Source: Dethiobacteria bacterium (GTDB lineage Bacteria; Bacillota; Dethiobacteria; DTU022; UBA8154). Taken from it: a DNA stretch of 64,000 bases. The notes beneath the pieces are model-generated. The model was not told the DNA's origin. It saw only the letters and a list, made by a program, of their open reading frames with translations, and ran no database searches. The stretch lies in assembly GCA_050948825.1 (NCBI GenBank), contig JBMNEO010000001.1, forward strand, positions 11,673 through 75,672, in the 5' to 3' direction. Position 1 is the stretch's first letter. Each line of letters starts with the position of its first letter. A program made the position numbers and the translations under genes. This document shows positions 37,192 through 63,738 of this stretch, piece by piece.

Positions 37192-37215
37192 AGGTATTCC
37201 TCCTAAATATTCCTC

Positions 37216-39250: not shown

Positions 39251-39265
39251 CTTAGAACCTCCTGG

Positions 39266-41744: not shown

Positions 41745-41748
41745 GAAA

Positions 41749-42492: not shown

Positions 42493-42499
42493 TTGAGCT

Positions 42500-43980: not shown

Positions 43981-44068
43981 GCTCTCACACTCCTAACCTG
44001 GACATAGCCGGCGGCAACAGGCTTGCCCCGCCTGCTTGCAGGCAACGGCAGCACGTTGCCGGAATAAT

Positions 44069-44668
44069 TTAAAACAGGCTGTATAAAACGGGCTGTGCAG
44101 CTCCGCTTAAGGCGATAATTGTTCCTGCTGCTATGGCTACACCGTAAGGCAAATAGACCTTTTCCGCTGAATGCGTCTCAAAAGAAGATGATAATAATAA
44201 TGATAGCTGATTAAGATAAGGGTTTCTGAATCTAAAATAAAGTAAAGCAAGCAAGGGAACGGCAACAAAGGCCAGTATTTTCTTTAATATTCTTAAAAAC
44301 TGCCGGTTATAAATTAGATAGATAACAGCAAGAATTCCCCCGCAAAAAGCGGTAAATACCGCGGCATAAAAAACAAACTGCAATCCTTTTAAAGCGCCGA
44401 TAGCCCCCAGGAGTTTTACATCGCCCCCTCCCATGCCGCCGAGCATAAAGGGGATGAAAAAAATGGCTAACCCTAATAGCAGGCCGTAAACGCTGAACAA
44501 AAAACCTTCCGGCCCGCCCGTAATTGTATGAGCCAGCAAACCCCAGAGCATTACCGGAAACGTCAGGAAGTTGGGGATTTTTTTCCTGGTAAGGTCAAAA
44601 AAAAGCGCTGCCAGCAGCAGGGCAAGCAATATATAATCGTTATACTGTAAAGGCAGTTGTAAAATCAT
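44069..44668 (-). CDS. cpaA: Prepilin peptidase (A24 family, CpaA/TadV-like)
   Basis: About 6 TM helices. ..FMLGGMGGGDVKLLGAIGALKG.. supplies the second catalytic Asp. Confidence 0.75.
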   Translation of the reverse strand: MILQLPLQYNDYILLALLLAALFFDLTRKKIPNFLTFPVMLWGLLAHTITGGPEGFLFSVYGLLLGLAIFFIPFMLGGMGGGDVKLLGAIGALKGLQFVFYAAVFTAFCGGILAVIYLIYNRQFLRILKKILAFVAVPLLALLYFRFRNPYLNQLSLLLSSSFETHSAEKVYLPYGVAIAAGTIIALSGAAQPVLYSLF

Positions 44669-44762
44669 AAGAACGCTCCTGCTAATTCAAGTAATCGGGG
44701 GAGAAAACACCCCGGAGATACTGCTCCCGCGATGAAGAGGCCTTTTGTATCTTCATTACGTT

Positions 44763-44936
44763 TTATGGCCAGTTCAGAGCCTCGTGATTGATAAATGTAT
44801 TAAATAAAGCCAGCACTTGCCCCCCCAGCTGCCTCAGGGCAAAAGAGACAATCAGGACAACGAAGGCAATAATCAGGGAATATTCCATCAGACCCTGTCC
44901 CTCATCCAAATACAACTTTTTTATGTAAACAGTCAT
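44763..44936 (-). CDS. flp: Flp-family pilin (57 aa)
   Basis: Not in the ORF track because it is under 60 aa. Minus-strand translation is MTVYIKKLYLDEGQGLMEYSLIIAFVVLIVSFALRQLGGQVLALFNTFINHEALNWP*. It has the Flp motif G-x-x-x-EY plus a hydrophobic helix, with an AAAGAGGA RBS. Confidence 0.7.
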   Translation of the reverse strand: MTVYIKKLYLDEGQGLMEYSLIIAFVVLIVSFALRQLGGQVLALFNTFINHEALNWP

Positions 44937-44966
44937 AGCTTATCCTCTTTTTGCTGAAGATTTTTT

Positions 44967-45001
44967 GTTACCTGCCCCCTGGGAAACAGGGGGCAGGTAA
45001 C
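44967..45001. other. Perfect 15-bp-stem hairpin (GTTACCTGCCCCCTG-ggaaa-CAGGGGGCAGGTAAC) between the two flp genes
   Basis: Seen directly. It lacks a 3' U-tract on the minus strand. It probably acts as a stability/attenuation element, as is common downstream of major pilin genes. Confidence 0.5.
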
Positions 45002-45091
45002 AAAAGCTTATCTTTAAGAATTTAGCTATACTAATCTACTTCGCACGCTCCCGTCTAATCCTTTGTAATTTCTCAAAAACTATTAATTTCA

Positions 45092-45211
45092 TCACCCAAT
45101 AGTTCCTAGCACCCCAATAACCGCCACCGCAATCAACACCAGGATCAAGGCGTATTCCGCCAGGCCCTGTCCTTCCTCGTCCCTGACCAATCTGGAAATC
45201 ATTTTCAGCAT
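45092..45211 (-). CDS. flp: Flp-family pilin (40 aa), first gene of the Tad operon
   Basis: Not in the ORF track. MLKMISRLVRDEEGQGLAEYALILVLIAVAVIGVLGTIG*. It has the Flp motif GQGLAEYALIL and a perfect AAGGAGG RBS. Confidence 0.7.
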   Translation of the reverse strand: MLKMISRLVRDEEGQGLAEYALILVLIAVAVIGVLGTIG

Positions 45212-45356
45212 TTCTTTTACCTCCTTAATTCTTATTGTTCATTGACAAAACAAGCGAGAAAATAACCCTCCATTAAAACCTGCCCTTGCTTTAATAACCT
45301 GCTTTTTCCCCCACGCTACACCTCCTTAAAGTGGTTTTCTAACTGGAGTAAGTTTA

Positions 45357-45833
45357 TTAGTCCATTGAGGAACACTCATTATCCGGACACAGAATCAGGT
45401 GAAACAAACCCCTGTAACAGGCCCCCACCAGCGCTTCGGCCTCCTCGGGGTAAACAGCTAGCGTTACCGCAGTTTGATGCTCTCCGGTTTCTTCTTCCGC
45501 CTCCCCGGAAGAGAGCACGAGGGCATTTTTTGCGGCGGTGTAGACCGGGGGCGGTTCACCGTTGCCGCGGTCAATCGCAACAAGCACGTCCACCCGGGCG
45601 CCGCAGCTCATATACCTGGACAAACCGGATAATTTATTTACCGGGATGGATATGCCGCGCATCTTCTTGGGAATCAGGCTGGAGAGGTTTCTTTCCGGAT
45701 TTGTTTCCGCTAGAGGCGGGTCAACTTCATTTTCCCGCTGCTCATCCCGAACCTCATTTTTAACCTCATCTGCAACCTCTTCTTCAACCTCCGGCTCCTC
45801 TTCAGCTTCCCGGACCGGAAGGGGTTCCACCAA
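45357..45833 (-). CDS. CpaB/RcpC C-terminal-domain-only protein with an acidic N-terminal segment (TTG start). A fragment or remnant of a second CpaB.
   Basis: ..RGISIPVNKLSGLSRYMSCGARVDVLVAIDRGNGEPPPVYTAAKNALVLSSG..TAVTLAVYPEEAEALVGACYRGLFHLIL aligns with residues ~127-235 of the CpaB at 41749..42492. It has no TM or SAF domain. Confidence 0.5.
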   Translation of the reverse strand: MVEPLPVREAEEEPEVEEEVADEVKNEVRDEQRENEVDPPLAETNPERNLSSLIPKKMRGISIPVNKLSGLSRYMSCGARVDVLVAIDRGNGEPPPVYTAAKNALVLSSGEAEEETGEHQTAVTLAVYPEEAEALVGACYRGLFHLILCPDNECSSMD

Positions 45834-45860
45834 AGTTGCGCTATGCGGTCAACAGTATCT

Positions 45861-47975
45861 TCACGGGGATAGATCGCTATGTTGCCTTCCCCGAAAGAAG
45901 CCGGAGACAGCGGAGGAGATGCTGGAGGACTGCTCGCCGGCGGAAATATCCCTCCGGACAGCGGAACTAATGAGCACCAATCTGTTTTCCCTGTTACCCT
46001 GCCTGTCAAACTCACTTCTGCTTTGGCTGAAATATTCTTTTCCTTCCGTTTTAACCGGATGATCTGTTTCCACTTCAGCCGGCTCATTTGGATCAACTGC
46101 GTTATTTAGATTAGCTTCTGGATTAACTTCTTCTTCTGGATCAACTGCTTCATCTGTCTCATCAATGTCATTAGCATCATAAGTATTATCAATATCATCA
46201 ATATCATCAATATCATCAATATCATCTATTTGATCAGTATCATCAGTATCATCTGTTACATCCAGATAATCTGTATCATCGTCTATTGCCCCCGAATAAC
46301 TTGTTTCCTCTGTATAACTTGTTTTATACATATAATTTGTTTCATTTAATACATCAGCTTCATCCATATCATCTGTTCCATCTGTTTCATAGGCTTCGTA
46401 TGTTTCATAAGCTTCATCTATCTCGCCCATTTCATCCAGATCTTCCAGATCATCCAGATCCTCAAGATCTTTTTTTTCTTTTATTTCCCCGATCATTTCA
46501 TCTGATCCGGCCACCCCATCATCTTCATGTAAATATTTCGCCTCTTCAGCAAGCGGCTCCACTGGCGGCTCTTTTTCCTCCACTTCTTCCTGTTCGCGGG
46601 GTTGCTGTGCCTGGTATTTCTCCTGTAAGCCTTCAATGCAGTCCGCCTCACCGCAAGCCCTCAACTTATCAATACATCTGGGGGTTGTCCCCGTGTATTT
46701 ATGCTCGCCCTGGACCATCCCGCTCTCGTTCAGACCGTCCTGCTGAAAGACAAAGATATCCTGCAGGGTTATATGGTCTTTCTCCATTCCCACCACTTCG
46801 CTAATCCTGGTTATTTTGCGCGTCCCGTCGCTGAAACGGGACTGCTGGATAATCAGCTCTATGGCAGAACTTATCTGCTCTCTGACAGCGGGCAGGGGAA
46901 GGTCCATACCGGCCATCAGCACCATGGTTTCCATACGAGTCAGCGCCTCACGGGGATTATTTGCGTGCAGGGTGGATATAGAACCATCGTGTCCTGTATT
47001 CATGGCCTGCAGCATGTCAAGCGTTTCAGCCCCTCTGACCTCTCCGACCACGATGCGATCCGGCCTCATGCGCAGGGAATTGATCACCAGTTCCCTAATC
47101 GTATACTGTCCCCTGCCTTCAATGTTGGCCGGGCGGCTCTCCAGGGTAACGACGTGATCCTGCTGTAGTTGTAGCTCGGCTGTATCTTCGATAGTAATTA
47201 TCCTTTCGTGATCGGGTATGAAACTTGAAAGCACATTCAGGGTGGTCGTCTTACCGCTGCCGGTCCCGCCGGAGACGATAATATTGACGCGCGACCTCAC
47301 GCAGGCCTTGAGAAACATAACCATCTCCTCTGTCATCGTTCCCAGTTCTAATAAGTCTTCCACGGTAAAGGGATCAGCAGCAAATTTTCGGATCGTCAGT
47401 GACGGCCCCTTGAGGGCCAGGGGCGGAATAATGGCATTTACGCGTGAGCCGTCCGGCAAGCGGGCATCTACCGTCGGTGAACTCTCGTCAATCCTCCTGC
47501 CCAAGGGGGTGATGATTTTATTAATAACGTGTAGAACATGCTCGTTATTCCGGAAAGTAACCTCCGTCTTGGCAATTCTGCCGTCCCGCTCCACATAGAC
47601 ATTATCATAGCCGTTCACCATAATTTCAGTAACGGCAGGATCATCGAGCAGCGAATTTATCGGGCCATAACCAAATATCTCATCGCAGACGTATTGAATT
47701 ACTTTTTGCTTGTCGCTCTGTGAAAGATGAAGGCTGCTCTCTTCCAGTACCGCTACCAGTGTATCGTAAATCTGCTCCGTGAACTGCCTCATTTGGAATG
47801 AGTCGAGCTTTTCTAGCACCAGCTTATCGTCTACTGAATCTATAACCTTTGTTAAGGTTTTGGATGCAATCTCTTCCAGCTCTTTTTTCCTGTCTGTGAT
47901 ATTATTTGATGAGGGTTCCCTGCTAAGCAGCTGCGGTCTCTTCCCATTGAACCTTAATTGCTGTTTTGGAAACAT
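45861..47975 (-). CDS. Second CpaF/TadA-family ATPase carrying a ~300-aa C-terminal acidic low-complexity extension with (DID)n and ETYEAY repeats. It lies immediately downstream of a c-di-GMP riboswitch.
   Basis: The start is set at MFPKQQLRF.. with a GGGTGGG RBS. The ORF track start at 48101 would overlap the riboswitch. The core is ..IIVSGGTGSGKTTTLNVLSSFIPDHERIITIEDTAELQL..GHDGSISTLHAN... The tail is ..DDTDDTDQIDDIDDIDDIDDIDNTYD... The last ~40 codons look out of frame. Confidence 0.75.
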   Translation of the reverse strand: MFPKQQLRFNGKRPQLLSREPSSNNITDRKKELEEIASKTLTKVIDSVDDKLVLEKLDSFQMRQFTEQIYDTLVAVLEESSLHLSQSDKQKVIQYVCDEIFGYGPINSLLDDPAVTEIMVNGYDNVYVERDGRIAKTEVTFRNNEHVLHVINKIITPLGRRIDESSPTVDARLPDGSRVNAIIPPLALKGPSLTIRKFAADPFTVEDLLELGTMTEEMVMFLKACVRSRVNIIVSGGTGSGKTTTLNVLSSFIPDHERIITIEDTAELQLQQDHVVTLESRPANIEGRGQYTIRELVINSLRMRPDRIVVGEVRGAETLDMLQAMNTGHDGSISTLHANNPREALTRMETMVLMAGMDLPLPAVREQISSAIELIIQQSRFSDGTRKITRISEVVGMEKDHITLQDIFVFQQDGLNESGMVQGEHKYTGTTPRCIDKLRACGEADCIEGLQEKYQAQQPREQEEVEEKEPPVEPLAEEAKYLHEDDGVAGSDEMIGEIKEKKDLEDLDDLEDLDEMGEIDEAYETYEAYETDGTDDMDEADVLNETNYMYKTSYTEETSYSGAIDDDTDYLDVTDDTDDTDQIDDIDDIDDIDDIDNTYDANDIDETDEAVDPEEEVNPEANLNNAVDPNEPAEVETDHPVKTEGKEYFSQSRSEFDRQGNRENRLVLISSAVRRDISAGEQSSSISSAVSGFFRGRQHSDLSP

Positions 47976-47999
47976 TTTTATCCCACCCTTATTCTGAGA

Positions 48000-48036
48000 A
48001 ATCAGGAAAACAAATACCCGGCGCCGGCGCCGGGAT
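48000..48036 (-). terminator. Intrinsic terminator forming the expression platform of the riboswitch upstream of the cpaF paralogue
   Basis: On the minus strand, CCCGGCGCCGGCGCCGGG is followed by UAUUUGUUUUCC. It lies between the aptamer and the RBS. Confidence 0.6.
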
Positions 48037-48059
48037 GCACGAATAAGGATTATAAAAAT

Positions 48060-48180
48060 CCCGTCTTCGGCAACCTGGCAATCATGGCCCACTAAGATCA
48101 TGCTAAGATCATGTTACTGAAGGCTTTAGACCCATGGCTTTGCGTCCCTGCCTTTCGACAGGTTTGCCTTTATCGGTCAG
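48060..48180 (-). promoter_or_regulatory. c-di-GMP-I (GEMM) riboswitch aptamer
   Basis: The minus strand reads CUGACCGAUAAAGGCAAACCUGUCGAAAGGCAGGGACGCAAAGCCAUGGGUCUAAAGCC...GCCAGGUUGCCGAAGACGGG. It has GGCAAACC, a GAAA tetraloop and GGGACGCAAAGCC, matching the canonical Vc2-type aptamer. Confidence 0.85.
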
Positions 48181-50861: not shown

Positions 50862-50966
50862 AAATCCCTGTCTTCGGCAACCTGGCGATCTTAGCCCCTC
50901 ATTACAGAGCTTTAGACCCATGGCTTTGCGCCCCACCCTTTCGGGATGGTTTGCCTTTGTCGGTCA
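50862..50966 (-). promoter_or_regulatory. c-di-GMP-I (GEMM) riboswitch aptamer
   Basis: The minus strand reads CUGACCGACAAAGGCAAACCAUCCCGAAAGGGUGGGGCGCAAAGCCAUGGGUCUAAAGCUCUGUAAUGAGGGGCUAAGAUCGCCAGGUUGCCGAAGACAGGG. It is nearly identical in its core to 48060..48180. Confidence 0.85.
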
Positions 50967-51085: not shown

Positions 51086-52180
51086 TTAATTTTTCTGTAG
51101 ATATATGCTATTCGATGTATTTGCGCCTTGCCTGGCACCTCCCAGTGGCAGGTCTATTTTTAATGCAATCTCTGCCAATTCAGGGTCAAACTGGGTTCCC
51201 GCACAGCGTTTCAACTCCTCCCTGACCTGGGAAAGGGACTTTGCCCGGGCATAAGGGCGATCAGTGAGCATAGCGTCAACTGCATCCGCGACCGCAATTA
51301 TCCTTGAGCCCAGTGGAATCTGCAAACCGCTAATCCCGTCGGGATAGCCTGTCCCGTCGTATTTTTCATGGTGATGCCTGACAATGGGTACAGCATCTTT
51401 GAGAAACTCTACCGGGGAGATGATCTCGGCTCCGATGGCAGGGTGCTGTTTGACAATCTTGAACTCTTCAAAGGTCAGGCCGGAGGTTTTCCTGAGGATC
51501 TGCTCGGGTATGCCAATCTTTCCGATATCATGCAATATTGCCGCCTGCTGCAGCAAGTCCAGTTCTTTTGGTGCAAGCTTTAGCTCTTCCCCCAGTAAGA
51601 CGGAGTACCTGGCCACTCTCTCCTGGTGGCCTTTGGTATAGGAATCCTTGGCATCGATCGCCGCTACCAGGGAGCGTACCGTCTCCAGATAGTGTTTCTG
51701 GATGTTGTTGTAGGCATGCTCGATCTCGCCCCTCAGCGTCTCGTTGGTTACCTGTAGTTCGCTCAGCCGGTTTTTGATCGCCGTGGATGATTTCCGGCGG
51801 GAGAGGCCTTTTTCAACAACCTCTTTCACGGCGCTTATTTCAAACGGCTTGATCAGATAATCCAGCGCGCCGTTGCGCAGGGCATTGGTCGCCGTATCCA
51901 CGGACGCATAGGCGGTAATCATTACCACCTCTGTTTCCGGGGCCTTTTTTTTCACCTCCGCCAAAAGCTCAATTCCGCTGATATCGGGCATTCTGATATC
52001 GAGTATTACAAGATCAAATTCGGAGTTGTCCAGGTAATCAAGGGCCTGGTTACCGTTGCCCGCGGTAACGACATCATAGTCGTCCCGCAAAATCATACGC
52101 AACGCTTCTCTGGGGCCAAGTTCATCATCGACAACAAGTATCCTGGGTGCATTACTCACCTTTTTCTCCTCCTTCTTCAA
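51086..52180 (-). CDS. Response regulator with REC + HD-GYP domains (c-di-GMP phosphodiesterase, RpfG-like)
   Basis: REC: ..ILVVDDELGPREAL..DLVILDIRMPDISGIELL... HD: ..HQERVARYSVLL..AAILHDIGKIGIP... GYP: ..HHEKYDGTGYPDG... Confidence 0.8.
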   Translation of the reverse strand: MKKEEKKVSNAPRILVVDDELGPREALRMILRDDYDVVTAGNGNQALDYLDNSEFDLVILDIRMPDISGIELLAEVKKKAPETEVVMITAYASVDTATNALRNGALDYLIKPFEISAVKEVVEKGLSRRKSSTAIKNRLSELQVTNETLRGEIEHAYNNIQKHYLETVRSLVAAIDAKDSYTKGHQERVARYSVLLGEELKLAPKELDLLQQAAILHDIGKIGIPEQILRKTSGLTFEEFKIVKQHPAIGAEIISPVEFLKDAVPIVRHHHEKYDGTGYPDGISGLQIPLGSRIIAVADAVDAMLTDRPYARAKSLSQVREELKRCAGTQFDPELAEIALKIDLPLGGARQGANTSNSIYLQKN

Positions 52181-54260
52181 TAATTATCGGCAAAAATACC
52201 TCAATTTCAAGGTGTTTATTTTTCCTGCACTGCGCCTTGATCCGCCCCCCGTGGTCTTCGATTATTTTCCTGCTCACCGGCAGCCCCAGGGAGAGATATC
52301 CATTCAGGCGCATACTCAAGGGATCGAACAGCTTTCCCAAATCATCCTGCGCAACCGTGGTCTGAAAATCGCAGAACCCGATGCGGACCCCACCGTTCGT
52401 AAAGAGATTTTCCTCAAAGGAAGTATTGATCCGAATTGTTCCACCCTTTTCCAGTGCTTTGAAGGAATGTCGAAAAAGGTATGAAAATGCCCTGGCCAAA
52501 AGGGTTTTATCGGCCATGATGCTTAGACGTTCCCTGCAGTATGACGTCTCCACTGTGGTCTCCTGCCCTAGCCCCTGCTCTTGCAGCAGCAGGAGCCCCA
52601 GGTCCAAAATCTCATGAATATCGGCAACCGTATATTTGTATGAAAGGGGCGAAGAAAAGGCAATGAGCTGCTCCACCAGCTCATTTAACCGCTTAACCTC
52701 CTGGCGAACGGTATAGGTAAAATATTCGCGGAAAGAGCTGTCATCATATTTCTCCCTTAAAAGTTCAGAAAAAGTCTGAATGGCAACCATGGGGTTTTTT
52801 ATTTCATGCGCAAGCTGGCTGACAAATTTGTTGAGCACATCCAGCTGGTCGGATTGACGGCGTTCCAACTCAAGCTGTTTCCTTTCCGAGATATCATCAA
52901 AGATCATCACACTTCCCAGAACACCCCCCGCGGAATCGAGCAGCTGGAAAGTGCTTATTTCCAGGGGAACACGCCCCTTTGCCAGTGTATACTCCTCCTT
53001 TAAAATCTCCTTCCCCGTTGTTAAAGTTTCGTAAAGTAAATCTCCCAGAGGGCTGGGCAACAGACGCAGGTCTTTGCCCATCGTTTCTTCCCGGCAAATC
53101 TGGAGGAGAGCACTCGCACGGGAATTAAAAGTAATAACCCGGTTTTCGCTGTTTATAGCTACAACCCCGCTGTTCATGCGCTGCAGGATATTTTCAAAAT
53201 ATGCTTTCTGGTTAATTACCTGGTGGTGGAGATCAATATCCCGCAGAGCCAGTGCAACATTTCCGCAGAGGATATACAGTATCTCCAGCTCCGCAGCGAA
53301 AAAGGGGGCGCCGGTTACTTTGGGGCCCAGGTTTAAAGCCCCGAGCAGCTCACCGTGGGCGATAAGCGGAATAGAGACCTCCCCCTGGAGCATCAGCAGC
53401 TCCTGGAGCGCTTCGGCAGAGAGGTAATCTGCGGCATCAGATGTTTCAGCAGCGATAAAAATTCGGCCTTCATCAGTTAACCAGGAGATTAATCCCGAAG
53501 ATGGGCTGAAGCTTAAATCCGAGCAATAATGCGGGTCCAAACCCCTCTGCGCAAAGACAACATAATTGCCCTGGCCCTGGCCCCGGCCGCTGTTGTCTTT
53601 TAACAGGATGGAAATTTTTGCTGCGGAAACGAGCCCAACAACGGAATCCATAAATAGTTCCAGCAGGCGCTCACTATTAAAATTATTGCCCAGGGCCCTG
53701 GAAAAATCGCAGAGAATGCGCTCCTCCTGATTTACATATGACAACGGGCGGTAGCGATGCCTTTCACGGAAATATTCCCCAGGGTTAGTGGAAAAGGCCT
53801 TTTTCTGCAGATCCTGAGCGTTATAGCTTAGCTGAGCCCTTTCCCAGGCTTTATCGAGTATTTTCTTTACCTGGCCGGCATTACAGGATAAAGGGATAAA
53901 GTCGAAAAAACAGTTTTCAGGCAGCGCAGCCTGCCCCTGCTCTCCAACTGCCAGGTAAATTAAATCGGGACGCACCCGATGAGCGTTTTCTACCCAGGGG
54001 AGGGCTTTCTTACTTGAAAGATCGACTATAACAATTCCTGCAGGGATTTTTTTGATTAAGCGCAGCGCTGACGCATATTCCCTTTCCAGCAAAGAATAGT
54101 CCTCCGGAAGATAGTTTTTTATTGTACCGATAAGCTTGCTATTGCTGAATGACGCTAACAGAACCAGTCTCAACCTCTTCTCCCCCTCAATAGCCGGCAG
54201 CAGGAAGGTAGATTTCAAAAACAGTACCGGTGTTGTTGCTGAAAAACTGCACACTCCCAC
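52152..54260 (-). CDS. Cytoplasmic sensor histidine kinase (degenerate REC-like N-terminus, GAF, PAS, HisKA, HATPase)
   Basis: H-box is ..LAHEIKNPMVAIQTFSELL.. The ATPase region is ..GGTIRINTSFEEN..GLGLPVSRKIIEDHGGRI... The N-terminal 5' end overlaps the upstream kinase by 74 nt, so the true start is likely internal. Confidence 0.7.
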   Translation of the reverse strand: MGVCSFSATTPVLFLKSTFLLPAIEGEKRLRLVLLASFSNSKLIGTIKNYLPEDYSLLEREYASALRLIKKIPAGIVIVDLSSKKALPWVENAHRVRPDLIYLAVGEQGQAALPENCFFDFIPLSCNAGQVKKILDKAWERAQLSYNAQDLQKKAFSTNPGEYFRERHRYRPLSYVNQEERILCDFSRALGNNFNSERLLELFMDSVVGLVSAAKISILLKDNSGRGQGQGNYVVFAQRGLDPHYCSDLSFSPSSGLISWLTDEGRIFIAAETSDAADYLSAEALQELLMLQGEVSIPLIAHGELLGALNLGPKVTGAPFFAAELEILYILCGNVALALRDIDLHHQVINQKAYFENILQRMNSGVVAINSENRVITFNSRASALLQICREETMGKDLRLLPSPLGDLLYETLTTGKEILKEEYTLAKGRVPLEISTFQLLDSAGGVLGSVMIFDDISERKQLELERRQSDQLDVLNKFVSQLAHEIKNPMVAIQTFSELLREKYDDSSFREYFTYTVRQEVKRLNELVEQLIAFSSPLSYKYTVADIHEILDLGLLLLQEQGLGQETTVETSYCRERLSIMADKTLLARAFSYLFRHSFKALEKGGTIRINTSFEENLFTNGGVRIGFCDFQTTVAQDDLGKLFDPLSMRLNGYLSLGLPVSRKIIEDHGGRIKAQCRKNKHLEIEVFLPIIIEEGGEKGE

Positions 54261-56706
54261 CGTGATCTGTAATAATTCTGTGGCTGATACTTAAACCCAT
54301 CCCTACCCCATCAGGCTTGGTTGTATAAAATGGATCAAAAATTCGATTACTCTGTTCAGGTGCAATTCCGGTCCCCGTATCTTTAATCATAATCTTTAAT
54401 TTACCCGTTGCAGCGCTATCCGGAGAACCCCCGGCAGAGGAAGAAAGGCTTTTCCCTGCGGGCACTCTCTCCGGCAGTGGGCATACATCGACCCACAGTT
54501 CTCCCCCGCCAGGCATTGCCTGAACCGCATTTACGCAAATATTAAAGAGCGCCTGTTTCATCTGCTCCCGATCTGCCTTTACAACCAGGGCATCACCGTG
54601 ACAGTTTTTGTGCAGCAGGATTTTCTGTGAGTCTATGCGGGGAAATAAAAGCAAAAGGACCTCCTCCATTAATTCCCAAATATCAACTTTTTCTAAATAG
54701 GGCCGATTGTCCCTGGAAAAGTTTAACAACTCCATGATAAGTTTGTTAATGCGACTTATTTCCCCGGTAACAATCTGGGAAAAAGTGTGACGGAACTCGT
54801 AGTCATCGTATTTTTCAGGCAGAAGCTCTGCAAACGTTTTAATGGAAACCAACGGGTTTTTTATTTCATGCGCTATCCCCGCAGCCAGTTTCCCCAGGGA
54901 GGCCAGCTTCTCGGTCCGGTTTTTCTCGCGTTCCAGCTCTTTAATCCGCGTTAAATCGCTCAAGACCATTATAACCCCTTGTTCCCCTTTTTCCAGCGAC
55001 CCCACCCTGGCCGTACTGCAGCATAAATAGGACGAAGACAGATCGGAGGGCAGCTCTATTTCAACCTCGCTTTTGTTCCGGCCGCTTTTTAATGTGTGTA
55101 GAATTGTATCGGCCAACACCGGATCCAGGACTTCCTCAATGCCCCTGCCCAGCACATCTTTGTCCGGATGAATGCCCGTAAGCTTCTTCGCCGAACTGTT
55201 AAAGGTAGTTATTCGCCCCTGTGCATCCACGGCAATTAGTCCGTTGCCCATGTTTTTTAGAATATTTTCCAGGTATTGTTTAATATCCAGGATCTCGTTA
55301 TACAACTGGGCATTTTTTAAGGCAACGGCTACATGCAAAGCCAGTGCGGAAAACAAATGCACATCTTCCCTGGAATAGGGATCCCCGGATTGCTTGTAAC
55401 CAAGAAACAAAATCCCCTCCAACCTTCCTTCCATTAATACCGGGACTGCAGCTTCAGCACCCAGCTTTTTCATTTCTGCAGAGAGCAGTTCCCGTTTTTC
55501 GGCATCCCTCATCCCATTTAAATCGGTAAGCAGCATGATTGAAGCCTTTTCCCGCAGGTAATTCACTAAAGGATTACTGCTCCGTAGAAAGCGGTCAGCC
55601 TGCACAGGCGGAGAGTAGAGCAAATATTCCTCGGCTGCAAGGGTAAATGAACCATCCCCTTCTTTGAGAAAAAAAACGGCGCTTTCAATAGAGATCGTGT
55701 TTACCATTTTATCAACCAGGAAATAAAGGAGTTTGTCCATGTTTAATATAGAAATCATCGACTTGTTTTCTTCAAGCATAATATCGTGATAATCATCTCG
55801 ACCGCGAAAAAAAACAAGATTAACCAGGAACTGAATCTGGTCTTTTACAGGCTGGTAAAAGAGCGCGGTCAGGATTATCGGCAGGATGATAAAATAGAGA
55901 ATATTTGCTTCAACAAAACCCCGTGAATTTTTTTCCGCAACCAGCAATAATGATATAAAAACACCCGCAAAAAGCACTATCGTAAATATATTGGCGACAA
56001 CTTTGCGCAGCGCCAGGCGGATATCCATTAACCTGAACTTCACAATAGCATAAGAAATAGAAGCAATCATAATCAAAGTAAAAACGGGCCCAAACGGGCG
56101 CAGGTCGATTGCTTTTACACCCAGCAGGGGGAGAAAAATGTTGGAAAGCGAACCCATCACAAAGGAAACCAGGATACCGCCGATAAAAAACCGGTACTGA
56201 TAGCGAACCAGGCCTCTGGAAAAAAGGATCTTGCGGTAAAGGACGATAAAAGTATAAACACCTATTCCGCTGAATAAAATGGCATAGAGTGGAAAAAGCG
56301 GACCATAAAGCGGTTCTTTGTTTTCCAAGGGGACCGTCACACCCTTGATTATTGCGGGTGTGAAACTCGCCGTAGAGAGGATTAAGCTTAAGAAGAGCAG
56401 TAATATAACGCTTTTGTAAGGGTATTTGATATCATCCTCAAAACAAAAAACCAGGGCAAATATAAACCATGGAGTCGTTGCGGCCACAGCGTGCGAAATC
56501 CTGATTGCAAGCAAAAGGTCCTCATAATCGTTAAAAAAAAGAACCGTCATAACAGTAATGGTCCAAATGCAGGCGTTCAGGGTAAAGCCCAGGAACAAAC
56601 GGTTAAGGCGCGATATGGGGTTCTTCCGGAAAACAAAAATGCCTAAAAAAAGGTTGGCCGCTGCCGCAAAACCAAGAAGCCATTTTGCAAAAATAATTAA
56701 GTCCAT
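54187..56706 (-). CDS. Polytopic membrane sensor histidine kinase (~10 TM N-terminal domain, GAF, PAS, HisKA, HATPase)
   Basis: H-box is ..IAHEIKNPLVSIKTFAELL.. The ATPase region is ..GGGELWVDV..GMGLSISHRIITDHGGSV... The start is set at MDLIIFAKW, 11 nt after the ketoacyl synthase stop. The ORF track start at 56820 overlaps that gene by 100 nt. Confidence 0.75.
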   Translation of the reverse strand: MDLIIFAKWLLGFAAAANLFLGIFVFRKNPISRLNRLFLGFTLNACIWTITVMTVLFFNDYEDLLLAIRISHAVAATTPWFIFALVFCFEDDIKYPYKSVILLLFLSLILSTASFTPAIIKGVTVPLENKEPLYGPLFPLYAILFSGIGVYTFIVLYRKILFSRGLVRYQYRFFIGGILVSFVMGSLSNIFLPLLGVKAIDLRPFGPVFTLIMIASISYAIVKFRLMDIRLALRKVVANIFTIVLFAGVFISLLLVAEKNSRGFVEANILYFIILPIILTALFYQPVKDQIQFLVNLVFFRGRDDYHDIMLEENKSMISILNMDKLLYFLVDKMVNTISIESAVFFLKEGDGSFTLAAEEYLLYSPPVQADRFLRSSNPLVNYLREKASIMLLTDLNGMRDAEKRELLSAEMKKLGAEAAVPVLMEGRLEGILFLGYKQSGDPYSREDVHLFSALALHVAVALKNAQLYNEILDIKQYLENILKNMGNGLIAVDAQGRITTFNSSAKKLTGIHPDKDVLGRGIEEVLDPVLADTILHTLKSGRNKSEVEIELPSDLSSSYLCCSTARVGSLEKGEQGVIMVLSDLTRIKELEREKNRTEKLASLGKLAAGIAHEIKNPLVSIKTFAELLPEKYDDYEFRHTFSQIVTGEISRINKLIMELLNFSRDNRPYLEKVDIWELMEEVLLLLFPRIDSQKILLHKNCHGDALVVKADREQMKQALFNICVNAVQAMPGGGELWVDVCPLPERVPAGKSLSSSAGGSPDSAATGKLKIMIKDTGTGIAPEQSNRIFDPFYTTKPDGVGMGLSISHRIITDHGGSVQFFSNNTGTVFEIYLPAAGY

Positions 56707-56719
56707 TGCGCACTCACCT

Positions 56720-57949
56720 TTATGGCCCGGTAACAACCAGCGATGCGTTGCAGCCCCCAATACCGTGCAAATTAACCAGGGCAGTATCGACTCTGGCCAC
56801 ACGGCCTCTGTTGGGGACATAATCCAGATCGCAATGCGGATCGGGATACTGGTAGTTCACCGTTGGGGGAATAAATTTATTACCTATTATCTGAGCTGTT
56901 GCTATTACCTGTAACGGCCCCGAGGCAGCAAGCGGATTGCCGATCATTGATTTGATTGAACTTACCGGCATGTTATAAGCATAATCTCCAAAAACCTCTT
57001 TAATTGCTTGCGTCTCTATTTTATCAATGAACCTGTCTCCAGGAGCATGGGCAGAGATATAATCTATATCCGCCAGTGCCAGCTTTGCCTTTTTTAACGA
57101 TTCTTGCAATGATGATACTATTGATGATTTTAGACTTTTTGGCGAGGTTGCATTGGTAATCGACCACCCTGTTATCCTACCCAGGATCTTCGCCCCTCTG
57201 GCCAAAGCCTTTTCGGCATCCTCAAGCAGGAGCATCCCGCTTCCCTCGGCCAAAACGCCGCCCGCGCGCCTGGCATCAAAAGGCCTGCTGGCGATAGCAG
57301 GTTCATCGTTATAAGAACCTGGCAGGAGCCCTGTAGAGCAAAAACAGGCAAGGACGAACGGGGTTATCGGGGCATCGCCTCCACCGGCCAGAGCCACCTC
57401 TGTATTCCCCTGAAGAATGGATTCAACGGCATAGATAATGCTGAAGATCCCGGAAGGGCAGCCTGTAGATACCGTAACCACCTGACCCGAGCACTTAAAC
57501 TCGGTTGCAAGCGCGCTGGCTGCCGCATGGGGGAATGAAGAAGGGATAACAGTTGGCTTCGTGGAACCGTTAATTTTAAAAAGGTCATACTCGCTTTCCA
57601 CCACCCCCATGTCCGACGTGCTGATACCTACCCAGATGCCGGACCGCAAACGGGCAAATTCCTCCTTGCTCATATTTGCATCCTGCAGCGCCATGCGTGC
57701 AGCGGTAATAATCAGATGAGTACTCCATGCCCTCCCGTTGCCAGGAAGAGGCTCGATATTTTCAATCCATTCCAGGGGAATTTCTCCGGCTATTTGCGAT
57801 GAATATTCTGAAGGATCAAAACGCCTGATGCGCCGAATGCCGGATTTGCCCTCACACAGAGCATTCCAAAAATTATCTTTTCCCACCCCGTTGGGCGCTA
57901 CAGATCCCAAGCCGGTAATCACCACATCAGACATTGCTTTCCCCTCCAA
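56720..57949 (-). CDS. Beta-ketoacyl synthase-family protein (FabF/FabB-like fold) with a non-canonical active site (Cys in TGCPSG; His in HAPGD; third residue Asn in KSMIGNPLAASG)
   Basis: ..VVITGLGSVAPNG..FWNALCEGKSGI..RRFD.. is the KS N-terminus. The C-terminal block is ..ISAHAPGD.. ..KSMIGNPLAASG... Confidence 0.7.
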   Translation of the reverse strand: MEGKAMSDVVITGLGSVAPNGVGKDNFWNALCEGKSGIRRIRRFDPSEYSSQIAGEIPLEWIENIEPLPGNGRAWSTHLIITAARMALQDANMSKEEFARLRSGIWVGISTSDMGVVESEYDLFKINGSTKPTVIPSSFPHAAASALATEFKCSGQVVTVSTGCPSGIFSIIYAVESILQGNTEVALAGGGDAPITPFVLACFCSTGLLPGSYNDEPAIASRPFDARRAGGVLAEGSGMLLLEDAEKALARGAKILGRITGWSITNATSPKSLKSSIVSSLQESLKKAKLALADIDYISAHAPGDRFIDKIETQAIKEVFGDYAYNMPVSSIKSMIGNPLAASGPLQVIATAQIIGNKFIPPTVNYQYPDPHCDLDYVPNRGRVARVDTALVNLHGIGGCNASLVVTGP

Positions 57950-58705
57950 TTACTTGAAAAATAACCCTTCCTCTTTTTCTTCAGGAGCCGGTTTTACAGC
58001 ATCCAGAAACCAATCCTGGTCTCCATATACTTTTTCTATCGATAAAAGTTCAAAGCCGCACTCCTCAACCAGGGATATGAGCTCCTCCCTCTTTAAGAAA
58101 TGGAAAGACTCCTGTTTTTTGATAAACATATTTAAAATTATAAAGATAAAAAGCCACGGAGCCAGGCTTAAGATCTGGCCGCTCAGGAAGAAAGGCCAAT
58201 AATACGGTTTGCCCTCCTTCATTTGTTGGACATGCTCTATGAAAACCGGGAAGATCTTCGGCTGAAAAGGCGGTGTAACCAATACCAGTTTGCCACCTAT
58301 TTCCAATACCCTGTGAATCTCTTTCAGCAACAAATCGGGACGTTTCACAGCATAGAGAACATTGATACAGGCTGCCCCCTGGAAAACTTCATCGCCATAC
58401 GGAATAAAGCTATTAAGGTCTGCTTCCCGCAAGGTAACCCTGTGCTCCCAGTTGACGATCTTTTTGCTCTTCAGGCCTGCCCGCTGCAGCATGGCCGGTG
58501 CAAAATCTATCCCATCTGCCTTCACTTTCGGTTCCAGGCGCAGGAGATGATGAAGAAAATTTCCCGTGCCGCAGCCTGCATCGAGGATATGCCAGCCGCT
58601 TTTTGGATTAAGGCTTTTTGCCGCGGCATCCAGAAGCCGGCGGTAAGGCAATAAATGCAGCATGATATGATCGTATACCAGCGCATATATTTGCCAGAAA
58701 ATCAC
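57950..58705 (-). CDS. Class I SAM-dependent methyltransferase
   Basis: ..HILDAGCGTGNFL.. is motif I. It also has the acidic motif II region and is about 250 aa long. Confidence 0.65.
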   Translation of the reverse strand: MIFWQIYALVYDHIMLHLLPYRRLLDAAAKSLNPKSGWHILDAGCGTGNFLHHLLRLEPKVKADGIDFAPAMLQRAGLKSKKIVNWEHRVTLREADLNSFIPYGDEVFQGAACINVLYAVKRPDLLLKEIHRVLEIGGKLVLVTPPFQPKIFPVFIEHVQQMKEGKPYYWPFFLSGQILSLAPWLFIFIILNMFIKKQESFHFLKREELISLVEECGFELLSIEKVYGDQDWFLDAVKPAPEEKEEGLFFK

Positions 58706-58795: not shown

Positions 58796-61558
58796 TCACT
58801 TAATCAGGCGCTCAATGTCTACCAGGTTGATAAAAATGTCTACCAGCCAGGGGTCAAACTGTATACCCCTGTTCTTCTTCAGTTCCGCGATCGCCTCTTC
58901 GTGGGTAAGGGCCGGCCGGTAGGGACGCGGGCTTGTCATGGCTTCATAGGCATCTATAATGGAGATGATGCGGGAGTAAATATGAATGTTATTTCCTTTT
59001 AAGCCCTTGGGATAGCCGCTCCCGTCCCAGCGTTCGTGATGCTGTAATATATAATCTGCAACGGATGATATCTCCGGGTGAAATTTGGCGATGCGATAGC
59101 CGATTTCGGGGTGGGATTTCATTTCATCCCACTCACTGGAATCAAGCTCCCCATTCTTAAATATTATTTCTTTGTTTATTCCAACCTTGCCGATGTCGTG
59201 CACTCGCGATAACAGCAGGATTTTATCCATCTCTTTGACCGGTATGCCGATAGCCTGCCCCAGCAGCAGCGCCATGCACTGCAGCCGTTTTTCGTACCCT
59301 TCGCTTCTGAAATCCCTGTCCTTGAGCAAACTTAATAGAAAATCTATAATGCTCTTTTTTACTTCATCGCTGCGCTCGAATTTATTTTTATACATATTAC
59401 TGTCGGCTTTTTTAAAGATTCCTTTTATTCCCCCTGATCCTGTTGAGCCCCTTATACCCCCTGAATTATAGTCCGCAGAGGCATAACCTACTGAAAGGCT
59501 GAGCGGTATGGTCTTTTCGTTTTTGTTGTACTCGTCTACTAATCTTTGGATGCGCCCAACAATCTCCTTGGCCACACTTTCACCGGTCCGGGGAAGAATA
59601 ATGGCAAATTCGTCTCCTCCAACCCGCGCCACTACATCGGAAGAACGAAAAGGCTTCTTAATAATCCCGACAGCAGTTTTCAGAAGCTCATCGCCTATGC
59701 TGTGGCCCATGATATCATTGATCAGCTTCAATCCATCAACATCGCAGACAACAATGCTTATTGGATAATGACGCTTGGAATCAAGCCGCTTCATTTCCTC
59801 TTCAAAATAAAGCCGGTTATAAATCCCGGTCAGCGAATCATGCATGCCAAGATACTTCAGCTTCTCCTCGTTCTGTTTCCGTTCGGTAATGTCGCTGGCA
59901 GTAAAAAGAACGCCGTTAAAACCTTCATCGAAATTAAAAATCGGGGTTAGAACTATGTCCAGCCACCGGAACTCTCCAGAGTTATTTTGCAGGGCTACCT
60001 CTACTTTTACCGTTTCACCGCTGGCAAGCACCTGATCTCTGGCTTCCAGCAAGGGCTCCGCTTCTCGGGGATTGAGAATATCGCGGATATTTGAATTAAC
60101 AAGATTTTCAGTTACTGTTCCCCAAAATGCGGCGCCGGCTTTGTTTAAGAAGATTAGCTTTCCCTCATCATCGAGAACCCAAATCAGACTGGGAATTGCA
60201 TCAAGTACCCGGTTATCCCTTTCTTCTTCTGCTGCTGCTACGGCCTTCTTTTCGCCCAGTGCAGCCAGGAGGGAATCAAATAACAGCTCATCCTCCTCTT
60301 CCAGCATGGACCTGGGATCCAGCAGCACTTTCCCGTCTTTAATCCTGGGGATAACCGGATGACGGCCTTTGCTTAAAAAGCTGCTGATTTGCTTGGCGGA
60401 ATACTTCGGCGAACTGAGGCAGACCTGAACGCTTTGAAACTTCTCTTCCCGGAAAGAAAGTTCCGTGAGGGAAACATTTTCGTAAGCCAGACTGATTTCA
60501 TAATTCCCGTTAAGAGAGTTGCTCAATCTATCCGCCAGGGAACGGGCGCGTTTTTCAAGGTTTTCCGGCTGAACGGAGAGCATGCGCAGCAAAGGAATTT
60601 TCTGCATGGCGTTAAATGAATCGCTATAAAGCTCCAGCGTTGCCTCCAAAGCTGCGACATTCATTCTGTCAGCGGCAAACATTTTTTTCAAGGTGTCTTT
60701 TTTTATCAATGAAAGATGCTTCCTTTTTCCAACGATAATCCCTATTGGGGGCCCTCCCAGGAGCTTGTCCCCAGAAAAAATAACCAGATCATAATCCGAA
60801 ACGGCCTTTTGGAGCTGCCAGCTTTCGGGAAATCCAAACAGAGCAGGATCCAGAAGCGTGGCGAAGTTCATGACTCTTACTGTGACAGGATCGTGCTCCT
60901 CGTTTAGTTCGGGCTTTTCGGCAATAGTGTGTCCCCCGGCAATACTTGCCGCGATGACTGCCCCGGAAGCATCAGTTGCATCGGCTGTATCGGTGGGACT
61001 TGTTATACCTGTGCCATTGATTGTATCGGTGGGAATGGTTGTATCTGTATCATTGATTGTACCTGTGTCATCGGCAGCATCGGCTATATGCCCTTCAGCA
61101 GCTGGATTTTTATTTTTCCCGGCACCAAAGGTAATAAAGCAGGCGGATTTTTTAATTCCCCCGTCCGCACCTTCTTTTTCATTAATGATTCTGAGCTGCG
61201 CTCCGCTCTGTTTTGCTAACGCCCTTAAAGATGGAGTAACACAGTTTAAATTGTTATTGCAATAGAATAACTCGTCTCTGGGAATAGATATCTCCTTTCC
61301 CCTTGCCAGGGCGTGAAAAACCAGGAATATGGCGGCTGAAAGATTGCTGGTCACAAGTAAATCTTCAGCCCCGGTGAGATTGGAAAAAAGCAAATTTAAA
61401 CGGCTCCAATGGGGAGCAGTATAGTTCAACCCATCCATCCGTGCATGAGAACCGGCCGCTGTTTTGGAAGCTCTAATAGCCTCTTCAGCGAGGGGTGGTT
61501 CAACTCCATTAATGAACAACATTCCGGATGCATTAATAAAAGGGTGCACAAAAATCAC
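58796..61558 (-). CDS. Multidomain signalling protein: SelA-like (L-seryl-tRNA(Sec) selenium transferase-fold, PLP-type) N-terminal domain with an internal Thr/Asp-rich low-complexity insert, then PAS, GGDEF and HD-GYP domains
   Basis: SelA-like: ..NLSAAIFLVFHALARGKEISIPRDELFYCNNNL..SGAQLRII.. and ..DLVIFSGDKLLGGPPIGIIVGKRKHL..AALEATLELY. GGDEF: ..RVGGDEFAIILP. HD-GYP: ..RVHDIGKVGI.. ..HHERWDGSGYPKG... Confidence 0.7.
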   Translation of the reverse strand: MIFVHPFINASGMLFINGVEPPLAEEAIRASKTAAGSHARMDGLNYTAPHWSRLNLLFSNLTGAEDLLVTSNLSAAIFLVFHALARGKEISIPRDELFYCNNNLNCVTPSLRALAKQSGAQLRIINEKEGADGGIKKSACFITFGAGKNKNPAAEGHIADAADDTGTINDTDTTIPTDTINGTGITSPTDTADATDASGAVIAASIAGGHTIAEKPELNEEHDPVTVRVMNFATLLDPALFGFPESWQLQKAVSDYDLVIFSGDKLLGGPPIGIIVGKRKHLSLIKKDTLKKMFAADRMNVAALEATLELYSDSFNAMQKIPLLRMLSVQPENLEKRARSLADRLSNSLNGNYEISLAYENVSLTELSFREEKFQSVQVCLSSPKYSAKQISSFLSKGRHPVIPRIKDGKVLLDPRSMLEEEDELLFDSLLAALGEKKAVAAAEEERDNRVLDAIPSLIWVLDDEGKLIFLNKAGAAFWGTVTENLVNSNIRDILNPREAEPLLEARDQVLASGETVKVEVALQNNSGEFRWLDIVLTPIFNFDEGFNGVLFTASDITERKQNEEKLKYLGMHDSLTGIYNRLYFEEEMKRLDSKRHYPISIVVCDVDGLKLINDIMGHSIGDELLKTAVGIIKKPFRSSDVVARVGGDEFAIILPRTGESVAKEIVGRIQRLVDEYNKNEKTIPLSLSVGYASADYNSGGIRGSTGSGGIKGIFKKADSNMYKNKFERSDEVKKSIIDFLLSLLKDRDFRSEGYEKRLQCMALLLGQAIGIPVKEMDKILLLSRVHDIGKVGINKEIIFKNGELDSSEWDEMKSHPEIGYRIAKFHPEISSVADYILQHHERWDGSGYPKGLKGNNIHIYSRIISIIDAYEAMTSPRPYRPALTHEEAIAELKKNRGIQFDPWLVDIFINLVDIERLIK

Positions 61559-61780: not shown

Positions 61781-61896
61781 TGCGACAAAGGGGACGGTTC
61801 TCGCTGTCAGCAGTTGCGACAGCGGGGACGGTGCGACAGCGGGGACGGTTCTCGCTGTCGCATTTGCGACAAAGGGGACGGTTCTCGCTGTCGCAT
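61781..61896. repeat. Array of about four tandem copies of a 29-31 bp hairpin unit, TGCGACA(G/A)(C/A)GGGGACGGTTCTCGCTGTCGCA, immediately 3' of the PBP gene
   Basis: Seen directly. The stem TGCGACAGCG/CGCTGTCGCA encloses a loop containing GGGACGGTTCT. A related array lies at 63638..63738. Confidence 0.7.
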
Positions 61897-63637: not shown

Positions 63638-63738
63638 ATGCGACACTGGGTGTGCGACACTAGGGACGGTTCTCCCTGTCGCACGACACTGGGTGCGTGC
63701 GGCACTGTGCGACACCGGGGACGGTTCTCCCTGTCGCA
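63638..63738. repeat. Second hairpin-repeat array, TGCGACAC(T/C)(A/G)GGGACGGTTCTCCCTGTCGCA, 25 nt upstream of the PBP start codon
   Basis: The loop core GGGACGGTTCTC matches 61781..61896. The inner stem bases differ in a compensatory way (CAGCG/CGCTG there, AGGGA/TCCCT here), which preserves the hairpin. Confidence 0.7.

Follow-up and report, generated by a model that had tools for sequence, protein, structure and literature searches.

A degenerate SelA-derived module fused to PAS, GGDEF and HD-GYP domains as a probable input or scaffold of a bifunctional c-di-GMP enzyme in Dethiobacteria

A 64,000-nucleotide stretch of a Dethiobacteria bacterium genome (the window; GenBank assembly GCA_050948825.1, contig JBMNEO010000001.1) encodes a protein in which a module derived from the selenocysteine synthase SelA is joined to PAS, GGDEF and HD-GYP domains. 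The module has lost the features that define SelA and is under purifying selection, and both the fusion and the gene cluster downstream of it are conserved in related genomes. We consider that the N-terminal module (N-module) is probably a dimeric pseudoenzyme that serves as the input or scaffold of a bifunctional c-di-GMP enzyme. The features on which this reading rests are listed in Table 1.

Table 1. Coordinates of the fusion gene, its domains and motifs, and the neighbouring cluster in the window
Feature	Position	Strand	Basis or remark
Full ORF, SelA-like module - PAS - GGDEF - HD-GYP	58796..61558	minus	920 aa, single uninterrupted ORF
SelA-derived fold-type-I module, residues 1-436	60251..61558	minus	Pfam SelA, phmmer, AF2/Foldseek
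Thr/Asp/Ala-rich insert, residues ~160-216	60911..61081	minus	predicted disordered
GDKLLGGP block with K265	60749..60772	minus	aligns with PLP-lysine block of SelA
PAS domain, residues 448-562	59873..60217	minus	PAS_4 E=6.6e-14; PAS_9 and PAS also match
GGDEF diguanylate-cyclase domain, residues 572-727	59378..59845	minus	PF00990 E=3.3e-33
RxxD I-site of GGDEF domain, intact	59636-59647	minus	
GGDEF motif, intact	59606-59620	minus	
HD-GYP phosphodiesterase domain, residues 743-903	58850..59332	minus	HD_5 (PF13487) E=4.6e-31
HD dyad, intact	59195-59200	minus	
GYP motif, intact	59009-59017	minus	
Co-conserved downstream cluster, five genes	51086..58705	minus	Pfam
SAM methyltransferase	57950-58705	minus	Pfam
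FabF-like ketoacyl synthase	56720-57949	minus	Pfam
7TM-GAF-PAS histidine kinase	54187-56820	minus	Pfam
GAF-PAS histidine kinase	52152-54260	minus	Pfam
RR-HD-GYP	51086-52180	minus	Pfam
c-di-GMP-I riboswitch aptamer, directly downstream of cluster	50873..50965	minus	RF01051, 77.9 bits

Analysis with Pfam recovered all four domains that a sequence-only reading of this DNA had proposed. The true start is likely the second GTG, at 61549, which gives a protein of 917 aa; this codon was preferred because its Shine-Dalgarno spacing is better and the N-termini of the family match it. In the signalling half, the I-site and GGDEF motif (RSSD-x5-GGDEF) are invariant across the family, and the HD-GYP motifs of the window protein read VHDIGK and HHERWDGSGYP. 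The HD dyad is changed to YD in 5 of the 11 family members. From these motifs, the GGDEF cyclase, with its I-site, is predicted to be active and the HD-GYP phosphodiesterase to be canonical, and the whole is probably a cytoplasmic bifunctional c-di-GMP enzyme.

The origin of the N-module was clear from sequence and structure comparisons. Pfam SelA (PF03841) matched it in two stretches with E=4.4e-44 and 151 bits (cutoff, 22.8), as expected from the SelA kinship first proposed, and the best sequence match by phmmer against SelA structures had E=2.7e-29; identity to true SelA is about 30%. The AF2 model (pLDDT 79.8) kept all seven core strands outside the insert, each with pLDDT >90, and Foldseek aligned it to the SelA structures 3w1h, 3wco and 8uzw with TM scores of 0.80-0.84. 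SelA was the top structural match by a wide margin (E~1e-28 versus 1e-15 for the next family); GabR was among the structural neighbours. The SelA motifs INA(S/T)G, LTGAE, FSGDKLLGGP and AALEATL were kept. The N-module derives from the main SelA lineage and not from the DgaE/MJ0158 branch (DgaE matched with no better than E=4.5e-4), and both the fold-type-I core and the C-terminal domain specific to SelA have been retained. The earlier claim of a motif-for-motif alignment with SelA stood only in part: both peptides quoted for it are present and SGDKLLGGP aligns, but just 58 of the 122 positions conserved at >=90% in SelA survive in the window protein, and most active-site motifs are gone.

We then compared the module with SelA residue by residue, with roles taken from PMC4607533 and PMC11047290. 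The tRNASec-binding N-domain (residues 1-66; PF12390) is absent. In the alignment, residue 5 of the window protein falls opposite E. coli residue 81, and where true SelAs are matched to the family profile, the match does not begin before residue ~80-95. Pfam matched no PF12390 domain in the window ORF, whereas the true SelA P0280 does match. Upstream of the ORF, no SelA N-domain is encoded; this is AT-rich intergenic DNA with repeats, into which the ORF cannot be extended. Arg86, Arg312 and Arg315, which bind selenophosphate in A. aeolicus SelA (AaSelA; PMC4607533), are replaced by E20, K292 and A295, and all three positions vary across the family. The Asp of the D-x-G-S-G motif, 99% conserved in SelA, is V229 here and V/I/L/M in every member; on fold-type-I topology and conservation, and not on residue-level superposition, it is the predicted pyridine-N1 Asp. 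The HTSN, EVGTTN and GGGS-P motifs were also lost, EVGTTN reading IINEKE. Ser217 of HTSN contacts PLP O3' and Ser282 contacts the phosphate (PMC4607533); in the family, the Ser217 equivalent and its neighbouring His are gone, and the Ser282 equivalent, kept as S262 in the window, is S/A/P/G/R. In the NNN helix, which binds the phosphate, N72 is retained. The dimer-dimer interface that forms the AaSelA decamer involves T191, T192, D199, Y220 and the segment 218-224 (PMC4607533). A deletion of ~7 aa takes out 218-224 in every member and T191/T192 are substituted, so that, judged by sequence comparison, the pentamerisation segment is deleted.

On these grounds, the N-module is read as not being a selenocysteine synthase, because the N-domain, the selenophosphate arginines, the predicted pyridine-N1 Asp and the pentamerisation segment are lost, fewer than half of the SelA-conserved positions are kept, and the score against the NCBIfam SelA equivalog TIGR00474 (167.8 bits) is below the cutoff of 267.9. 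The earlier suggestion of a Ser/Sec-related metabolite sensor gains no support from the residues, since the protein has no tRNASec domain, carries other residues in place of the selenophosphate arginines and has lost most of the positions that contact PLP. No tRNA genes, tRNASec included, were found within the window.

The fusion is a family trait. At least 11 distinct proteins from Bacillota/Dethiobacteria MAGs share the architecture, with N-module identity down to 32%; public records label them merely "diguanylate cyclase" or "hypothetical protein". An exhaustive profile search of 1.84e9 representatives found the module in no architecture but this fusion. A search with the N-module only had given three close relatives, with ordinary SelA saturating the candidates, and the near-singleton status that this suggested was overturned by the full-length and exhaustive profile searches. 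The ~380-aa fold is complete in all 11 members despite deep divergence, and F15, P21, E26, D66, A233, Q248 and E309 have newly arisen as family-specific invariants. The dN/dS of the SelA-like parts was 0.15-0.25 (0.12-0.21 for the signalling domains), indicating that the module is functional and under purifying selection.

That the ORF is an assembly chimera or a frameshifted gene pair, with selA beside a diguanylate cyclase gene, had been raised at the outset, and some relatives are indeed called split (P0001, 444 aa + 418 aa; P0002, 692 aa + 199 aa). However, the window, L004 (a 95%-identical MAG copy) and nine more full-length proteins (846-927 aa, from independent assemblies) all carry the fusion unbroken; ten independent full-length ORFs are known, and no SelA N-domain precedes the gene. 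Breaks occur only on contigs of about 1.2x coverage (1.15-1.2x), where neighbouring genes are fragmented too, and on a single contig whose reading frame holds two TGA codons. L001 shows compensating frameshifts in the linker, and at the TGA codons of L002, the closely related L005 has Ser-Gly-Arg. For L001, L003 and L002, we rejected the two-gene reading of the split calls, which reflect low-coverage frameshifts and a lineage-specific TGA pair, and we regard a chimera or gene pair as having a negligible chance of being correct. Selenocysteine at the L002 TGA codons was also considered and set aside; L005 has Ser/Arg and the window clade Ser/Gly at these sites, which lie in a variable Gly-rich loop.

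The low-complexity, Thr/Asp-rich insert seen in the sequence-only reading was borne out. The AF2 model gave pLDDT <50 over residues 149-220, and an 18/36-bp tandem repeat lies inside the insert at 60986-61071. The insert is missing from the family members of 846-857 aa and confined to the window's clade, where it is length-polymorphic (cluster members span 908-929 aa), with a dN/dS of 0.58. It is a clade-specific, repeat-driven disordered loop. It lies close to the site of the 218-224 deletion.

Wherever the fusion occurs, it stands in a single conserved cluster of genes. Downstream of the fusion gene, the order of the five-gene cluster is identical in L010, L011, L012 and L015; the P0279 locus is without the methyltransferase. 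The FabF-like synthase has an unusual Cys-His-Asn triad, and neither it nor the methyltransferase received a specific NCBIfam assignment, every equivalog score being below cutoff. The riboswitch that follows the cluster is likely a local reader of the c-di-GMP pool. There are three c-di-GMP-I-type riboswitches in the window in all, together with a PilZ protein, an EAL-HDOD protein, Tad pilus genes, and camelysin/TasA-like and adhesin genes. The fusion gene sits in a biofilm/pilus control island, and proximity suggests that the enzyme may be linked to the nearby riboswitches and PilZ protein.

K265, in SGDKLLGGP, is the equivalent of the SelA Schiff-base lysine (Ec K295, A. aeolicus K285), and a check of its conservation, advised by the sequence-only reading, found it present in the window protein. 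In 10 of the 11 members, D264-K265 and the glycines around them do not vary, so the module could still bind PLP and "pseudoenzyme" may overstate. In a sensor of the GabR/MocR type, K265 would hold PLP, an amino-acid-like effector would form an external aldimine, and domain closure would switch the c-di-GMP domains. The 8-residue invariant block around the lysine, the retained N72, the intact fold with GabR among its neighbours and the purifying selection are in keeping with such a sensor, and MocR/GabR gives a precedent for fold-type-I domains as PLP-dependent sensors. Against it, every member has a hydrophobic residue in place of the predicted pyridine-N1 Asp, Ser217 (the O3' contact) and its neighbouring His are gone, the phosphate-contacting Ser282 position varies (roles from PMC4607533), and the block of P0279 reads GDRMVGGP, with Arg for lysine, identically in two independent assemblies. 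We therefore hold a PLP-dependent sensor to be unlikely.

The same losses bear on the idea that the module is still a small-substrate enzyme, which would make a metabolite or signal with the FabF-like synthase and the methyltransferase and be coupled to c-di-GMP through the fusion. The kept lysine and the tight, conserved linkage to the two genes speak for this, but the Asp that would act as electron sink has been lost along with other PLP contacts, the family has not fixed 86 of the ~121 positions conserved in SelA, and the member with Arg for lysine is also the one lacking the methyltransferase; we judge such an enzyme very improbable. Should the module instead be an evolutionary leftover or spacer without a function of its own, its faster divergence at long range (32-57% identity versus 46-64% for residues ~220-920, which are largely signalling domains) and its tolerance of a 57-residue disordered insert would be explained. 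The low dN/dS, the full fold in 11 of 11 members and the new invariants argue against this, and a passive remnant appears improbable. It is also quite improbable that the N-module is a true receptor for a small carbonyl- or lipid-type ligand made by the synthase and methyltransferase. Binding would take place in the remodelled former PLP pocket, where the loop G-D-(K/R)-x-x-G-G-P is invariant and a new K-E-P-P-L lid replaces the HTNLGR loop, and the cluster would then be an autoinducer circuit complete in itself and connected to c-di-GMP. The logic of such a circuit would resemble that of DSF/Rpf (RpfC-RpfG) or of the Phc 3-OH-fatty-acid methyl ester system.

For the input or scaffold that we favour, a sensor and a scaffold role are both plausible. 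The N-module would form an intimate fold-type-I dimer and keep the two PAS-GGDEF-HD-GYP arms together, a prerequisite for cyclase activity. Either domain closure or a remodelled pocket about the Gly-Asp-Lys/Arg loop, which is retained, may bias the balance of synthesis and hydrolysis. The c-di-GMP produced would be read locally by the three riboswitches and the PilZ protein, which may control the Tad-pilus, camelysin/TasA-like and adhesin genes. The SelA-to-PAS linker counts against this mechanism, because its variable length across the family (about 13-22 residues, no heptad register) is more in line with a flexible tether than with a rigid helix for signalling.

Compared with bacterial SelA (PF03841/TIGR00474; 3W1H, 8UZW), its best sequence and structure match, the fusion family shares the fold-type-I core and C-terminal domain, lacks the N-domain, arginines and pentamerisation segment, and has added signalling domains. 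Loss of the tRNASec domain is common to H. pylori/H. acinonychis SelA, M. jannaschii MJ0158 and DgaE, which are N-truncated and not in Sec decoding, and H. pylori SelA (HpSelA) has also lost the 218-224 segment (PMC4607533). Both losses typify SelA homologues that have taken on another role (PMC4607533). HpSelA keeps K285, R86, R312, R315, R119 and D284, a hint that it may still be catalytic (PMC4607533), whereas the fusion family loses or varies these residues except D284 (invariant) and the lysine (10 of 11). Furthermore, HpSelA, MJ0158 and DgaE stand alone, in contrast to the fusion to PAS-GGDEF-HD-GYP seen here. The C-terminal 480 aa, with canonical GGDEF, RxxD I-site and HD...GYP, are common to known PAS-GGDEF-HD-GYP and GGDEF-HD-GYP enzymes, from which the window family differs in its SelA-derived N-terminal input. 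Outside the family, no SelA-derived input on a c-di-GMP enzyme was found in the exhaustive profile search or in the literature on SelA/PLP and diguanylate cyclases.

To our knowledge, MocR/GabR is the sole well-known precedent for a PLP fold as a regulator. It is likewise a fold-type-I PLP fold recruited as a dimeric regulatory module and is the closest precedent for the mode of action. The donor there is aminotransferase class I and the output a wHTH DNA-binding domain, whereas here the donor is SelA and the output c-di-GMP turnover; Pfam found no HTH in the fusion protein and its PLP pocket is degenerate apart from the lysine, so the likeness is in logic only.

The family would thus represent the exaptation of a translation-machinery enzyme as the input of a second-messenger enzyme, and would extend the set of c-di-GMP sensor domains by a PLP-fold pseudoenzyme. 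It also forms a natural series of SelA degeneration, from N-domain loss through interface deletion and arginine loss to, finally, the change of K to R, which helps to tell which features of SelA depend on tRNA-linked catalysis. For anaerobic-digester Bacillota, it draws attention to a signalling cluster, conserved and unstudied, that lies next to Tad-pilus/adhesin genes and c-di-GMP riboswitches.

The gene at 58796-61558 (minus strand) was a single unbroken reading frame of 920 aa; the intergenic DNA in front of it was AT-rich and left no space for more in-frame coding sequence. Because the second GTG (61549) had better Shine-Dalgarno spacing than the first start and agreed with where the proteins of relatives begin (M-x-P-x-INA(S/T)G), the protein is probably 917 aa long. 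The sequence-only reading had proposed a SelA-like N-terminus joined to PAS-GGDEF-HD-GYP, and both Pfam and phmmer bore this out. In the search against PDB sequences, residues 5-125 and 213-425 aligned at E=2.7e-29 to the SelA proteins of E. coli and A. aeolicus, and the lysine of SGDKLLGGP paired with K295 and K285, respectively.

A chimeric ORF, or two genes joined by a frameshift, had also been considered; this was refuted by intact fusions in independent full-length relatives, and a chimera is excluded as an explanation of the gene. The same architecture was found in a 95%-identical copy from a Bacillota MAG of an anaerobic digester (L004), in proteins P0121-P0128 from a full-length search (846-927 aa, 100% coverage, the same four domains, overall identity down to 45%), and in P0278 and the more distant P0279, gained by exhaustive profile search. 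More than 60 sequences in 90%-identity clusters (NCBI, JGI, ENA and Logan) came from Bacillota or 'Dethiobacteria' MAGs and bore no name other than 'diguanylate cyclase' or 'hypothetical protein'. Among the matches listed in a profile search of 1.84 billion representatives, no N-module (residues 1-436) was found outside this architecture. The other listed matches were nearly all SelAs of roughly 430-690 aa, most of ~470 aa, whose match began at residue ~80-95 or further on; among the long SelAs, those that were checked carried N-terminal extensions. Apparent splits into two genes on contigs L001 and L003 were rejected, since these contigs had 1.2x coverage and their neighbouring genes were fragmented too; L001 showed compensating frameshifts. 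In L002 (12077-12085), two in-frame TGA codons (TGA TGG TGA) lay between the GGDEF and HD-GYP parts, where its closest relative, L005, reads TCA GGT AGA (Ser-Gly-Arg); the pair could be an error of assembly, or it could mark a true split or a gene that has recently become a pseudogene. A break there would remove the last GGDEF helix.

An AF2 model of the N-module, built on 114 sequences, was confident except at residues 149-220 and contained the C-terminal domain as well as a fold-type-I core complete with its seven strands. Foldseek matched it first to SelA structures (E~1e-28, TM 0.80-0.84) and next to Cap15 and DgaE (E~1e-15), indicating, on the predicted structure, descent from the main SelA lineage. 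A role as a true selenocysteine synthase was excluded by feature losses and by a TIGR00474 equivalog score of 167.8 bits, below the cutoff of 267.9. The tRNASec-binding N-domain was absent from the fusion protein (ORF, upstream DNA and SelA alignments examined). The window protein kept 58 of the 122 positions conserved at 90% or more among 112 true SelAs, and 35 SelA-conserved positions were fixed across the family of 11 distinct fusion proteins. At the selenophosphate site (residue roles from PMC4607533), A. aeolicus R86, R312 and R315 were E20, K292 and A295 in the window and varied within the family; R119 was present in the window but not conserved across the family, S282 was variable, and the HTSN motif (S217) was lost. 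The Asp of D-x-G-S-G, 99% conserved in SelA and predicted from fold-type-I topology to be the pyridine-N1 Asp, was hydrophobic in every member. A ~7-residue deletion took out the equivalent of A. aeolicus 218-224, and T191 and T192 were replaced, all of which are needed for pentamerisation (PMC4607533; PMC11047290); loss of this segment has likewise been described in the non-Sec SelA of H. pylori (PMC4607533). What remained was the framework of the fold together with the G-D-K-L-L-G-G-P loop. The PLP lysine, whose conservation the sequence-only reading had proposed to check, was kept in the window but was Arg in P0279 (GDRMVGGP, identical in two independent assemblies).

For the SelA-like region, compared in two parts between the window and L002, dN/dS was 0.25 and 0.15, similar to the values of PAS (0.16), GGDEF (0.21) and HD-GYP (0.12), and invariant residues peculiar to the family had newly arisen in the N-module. 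Both observations indicate, at the sequence level, that the N-module is still functional. The Thr/Asp-rich interruption of the SelA-like domain proved real. Restricted to the window's clade and holding an 18/36-bp tandem repeat, it was predicted to be disordered, lay near the former dimer-dimer surface, had a dN/dS of 0.58 and varied in length among >90%-identical sequences (proteins of 908-929 aa); it is most readily understood as a surface loop that the protein tolerates. A Gly/Ser-rich loop, SGGIRGSTGSGGIKG (59420-59464, minus strand; residues 699-713), lay near the GGDEF domain end, and part of it was a ~9-residue insertion that the window's clade has and other family members lack, the second low-complexity expansion of this protein to be specific to that clade.

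The GGDEF motif and RxxD I-site were invariant in the family. The HD (residues 787-788) and GYP motifs were intact in the window copy; HD read YD, with GYP kept, in 5 of 11 members (P0122, P0123, P0128, P0278 and P0279), which suggests that in roughly half of the family this phosphodiesterase domain is inactive or has taken on another role.

Domains of the fusion protein and features of its surroundings
Feature	Position	Remark
SelA (PF03841)	two stretches of fusion protein	Pfam, E=4.4e-44
PAS	residues 448-562	Pfam
GGDEF	residues 572-727	Pfam
HD_5/HD-GYP	residues 743-903	Pfam
FabF-like ketoacyl synthase	56720-57949 (minus strand)	co-conserved with fusion gene
SAM methyltransferase, generic	57950-58705 (window, minus strand)	paired with FabF-like synthase everywhere but P0279 locus
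~570-720-aa upstream protein (relatives' loci)	L010 776-2644; L011 2513-4237; L012 3399-5354; L013 8109-9911; L015 2833-4974	
Window homologue of upstream protein	19555-21714 (minus strand)	~40% identity; about 40 kb off; adjoins PilZ gene
REP-like palindromic repeat, core GACAGCGAGAACCGTCCCC	61790-61892; 63662-63735	
c-di-GMP-I riboswitch RF01051, canonical	50873-50965 (minus strand)	77.9 bits; upstream of transglutaminase-like and EAL-HDOD genes
c-di-GMP-I-GGC variant RF03167, two aptamers	48065-48177; 14194-14274 (both minus strand)	73 and 68 bits
Surface-structure island around c-di-GMP genes	35371-48101; 8679-14151; 16228-23536 (all minus strand)	

The gene cluster, shared throughout the family, ran in the order fusion, SAM methyltransferase, FabF-like ketoacyl synthase, 7TM-GAF-PAS kinase, GAF-PAS kinase and RR-HD-GYP. 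The synthase scored below cutoff against every NCBIfam equivalog and kept the Cys and first His, with the second catalytic His replaced by Asn (KSMIGNPL versus KSMTGHLL in FabF), which leaves a KAS-II scaffold with a Cys-His-Asn triad. Most lineages carried directly upstream of the fusion gene, sometimes overlapping it, a gene for a ~570-720-aa protein without Pfam or NCBIfam match, possibly a functional partner. At this site the window instead held REP-like repeats, with three copies in the gap that separates the fusion gene from the PBP gene and two upstream of the latter (0 expected by chance), in a region that folded strongly (z=-4.7). Relatives had a Y1_Tnp (RAYT-like) gene nearby.

One RF03167 aptamer lay upstream of a T2SSE ATPase and the other upstream of three camelysin (Peptidase_M73)/TasA-like paralogues; to our knowledge, the ligand of this variant class is not settled. 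Besides these paralogues, the island comprised a Tad/Flp pilus locus (two T2SSE ATPases, TadE, Tad, RcpC/CpaB, an RR-ParA TadZ-like protein, prepilin peptidase and VWA), an SdrD_B-domain protein, a sortase and an 860-aa Ig-like-domain protein. The window further held an EAL-HDOD protein and adhesin-like proteins.

The N-module, of fold type I and derived from SelA, is Sec-incompetent, evolves under selection and is always fused to PAS-GGDEF-HD-GYP. Cyclic-di-GMP enzymes with an N-terminal input domain are well known; no description of a SelA-GGDEF fusion emerged from literature or sequence searches. Because the decamer interface has been lost, we propose that the N-module supplies an intimate fold-type-I dimer, which would bring two GGDEF domains side by side, and a signal from its remodelled pocket may be passed on. 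The output would be read by neighbouring riboswitches and PilZ, in what appears to be a circuit connecting c-di-GMP to surface structures.

For regulation by a fold-type-I domain, MocR/GabR offer a precedent. The main rival to this dimeric input module is a PLP-dependent sensor resembling GabR. The Asp-Lys pair, almost invariant, favours such a sensor, but the PLP contacts are lost and one member has Arg for Lys. Less likely, the N-module still works as an enzyme alongside the synthase and methyltransferase. If the proposed input module binds a ligand tied to the co-conserved biosynthetic genes, the finding would matter more.
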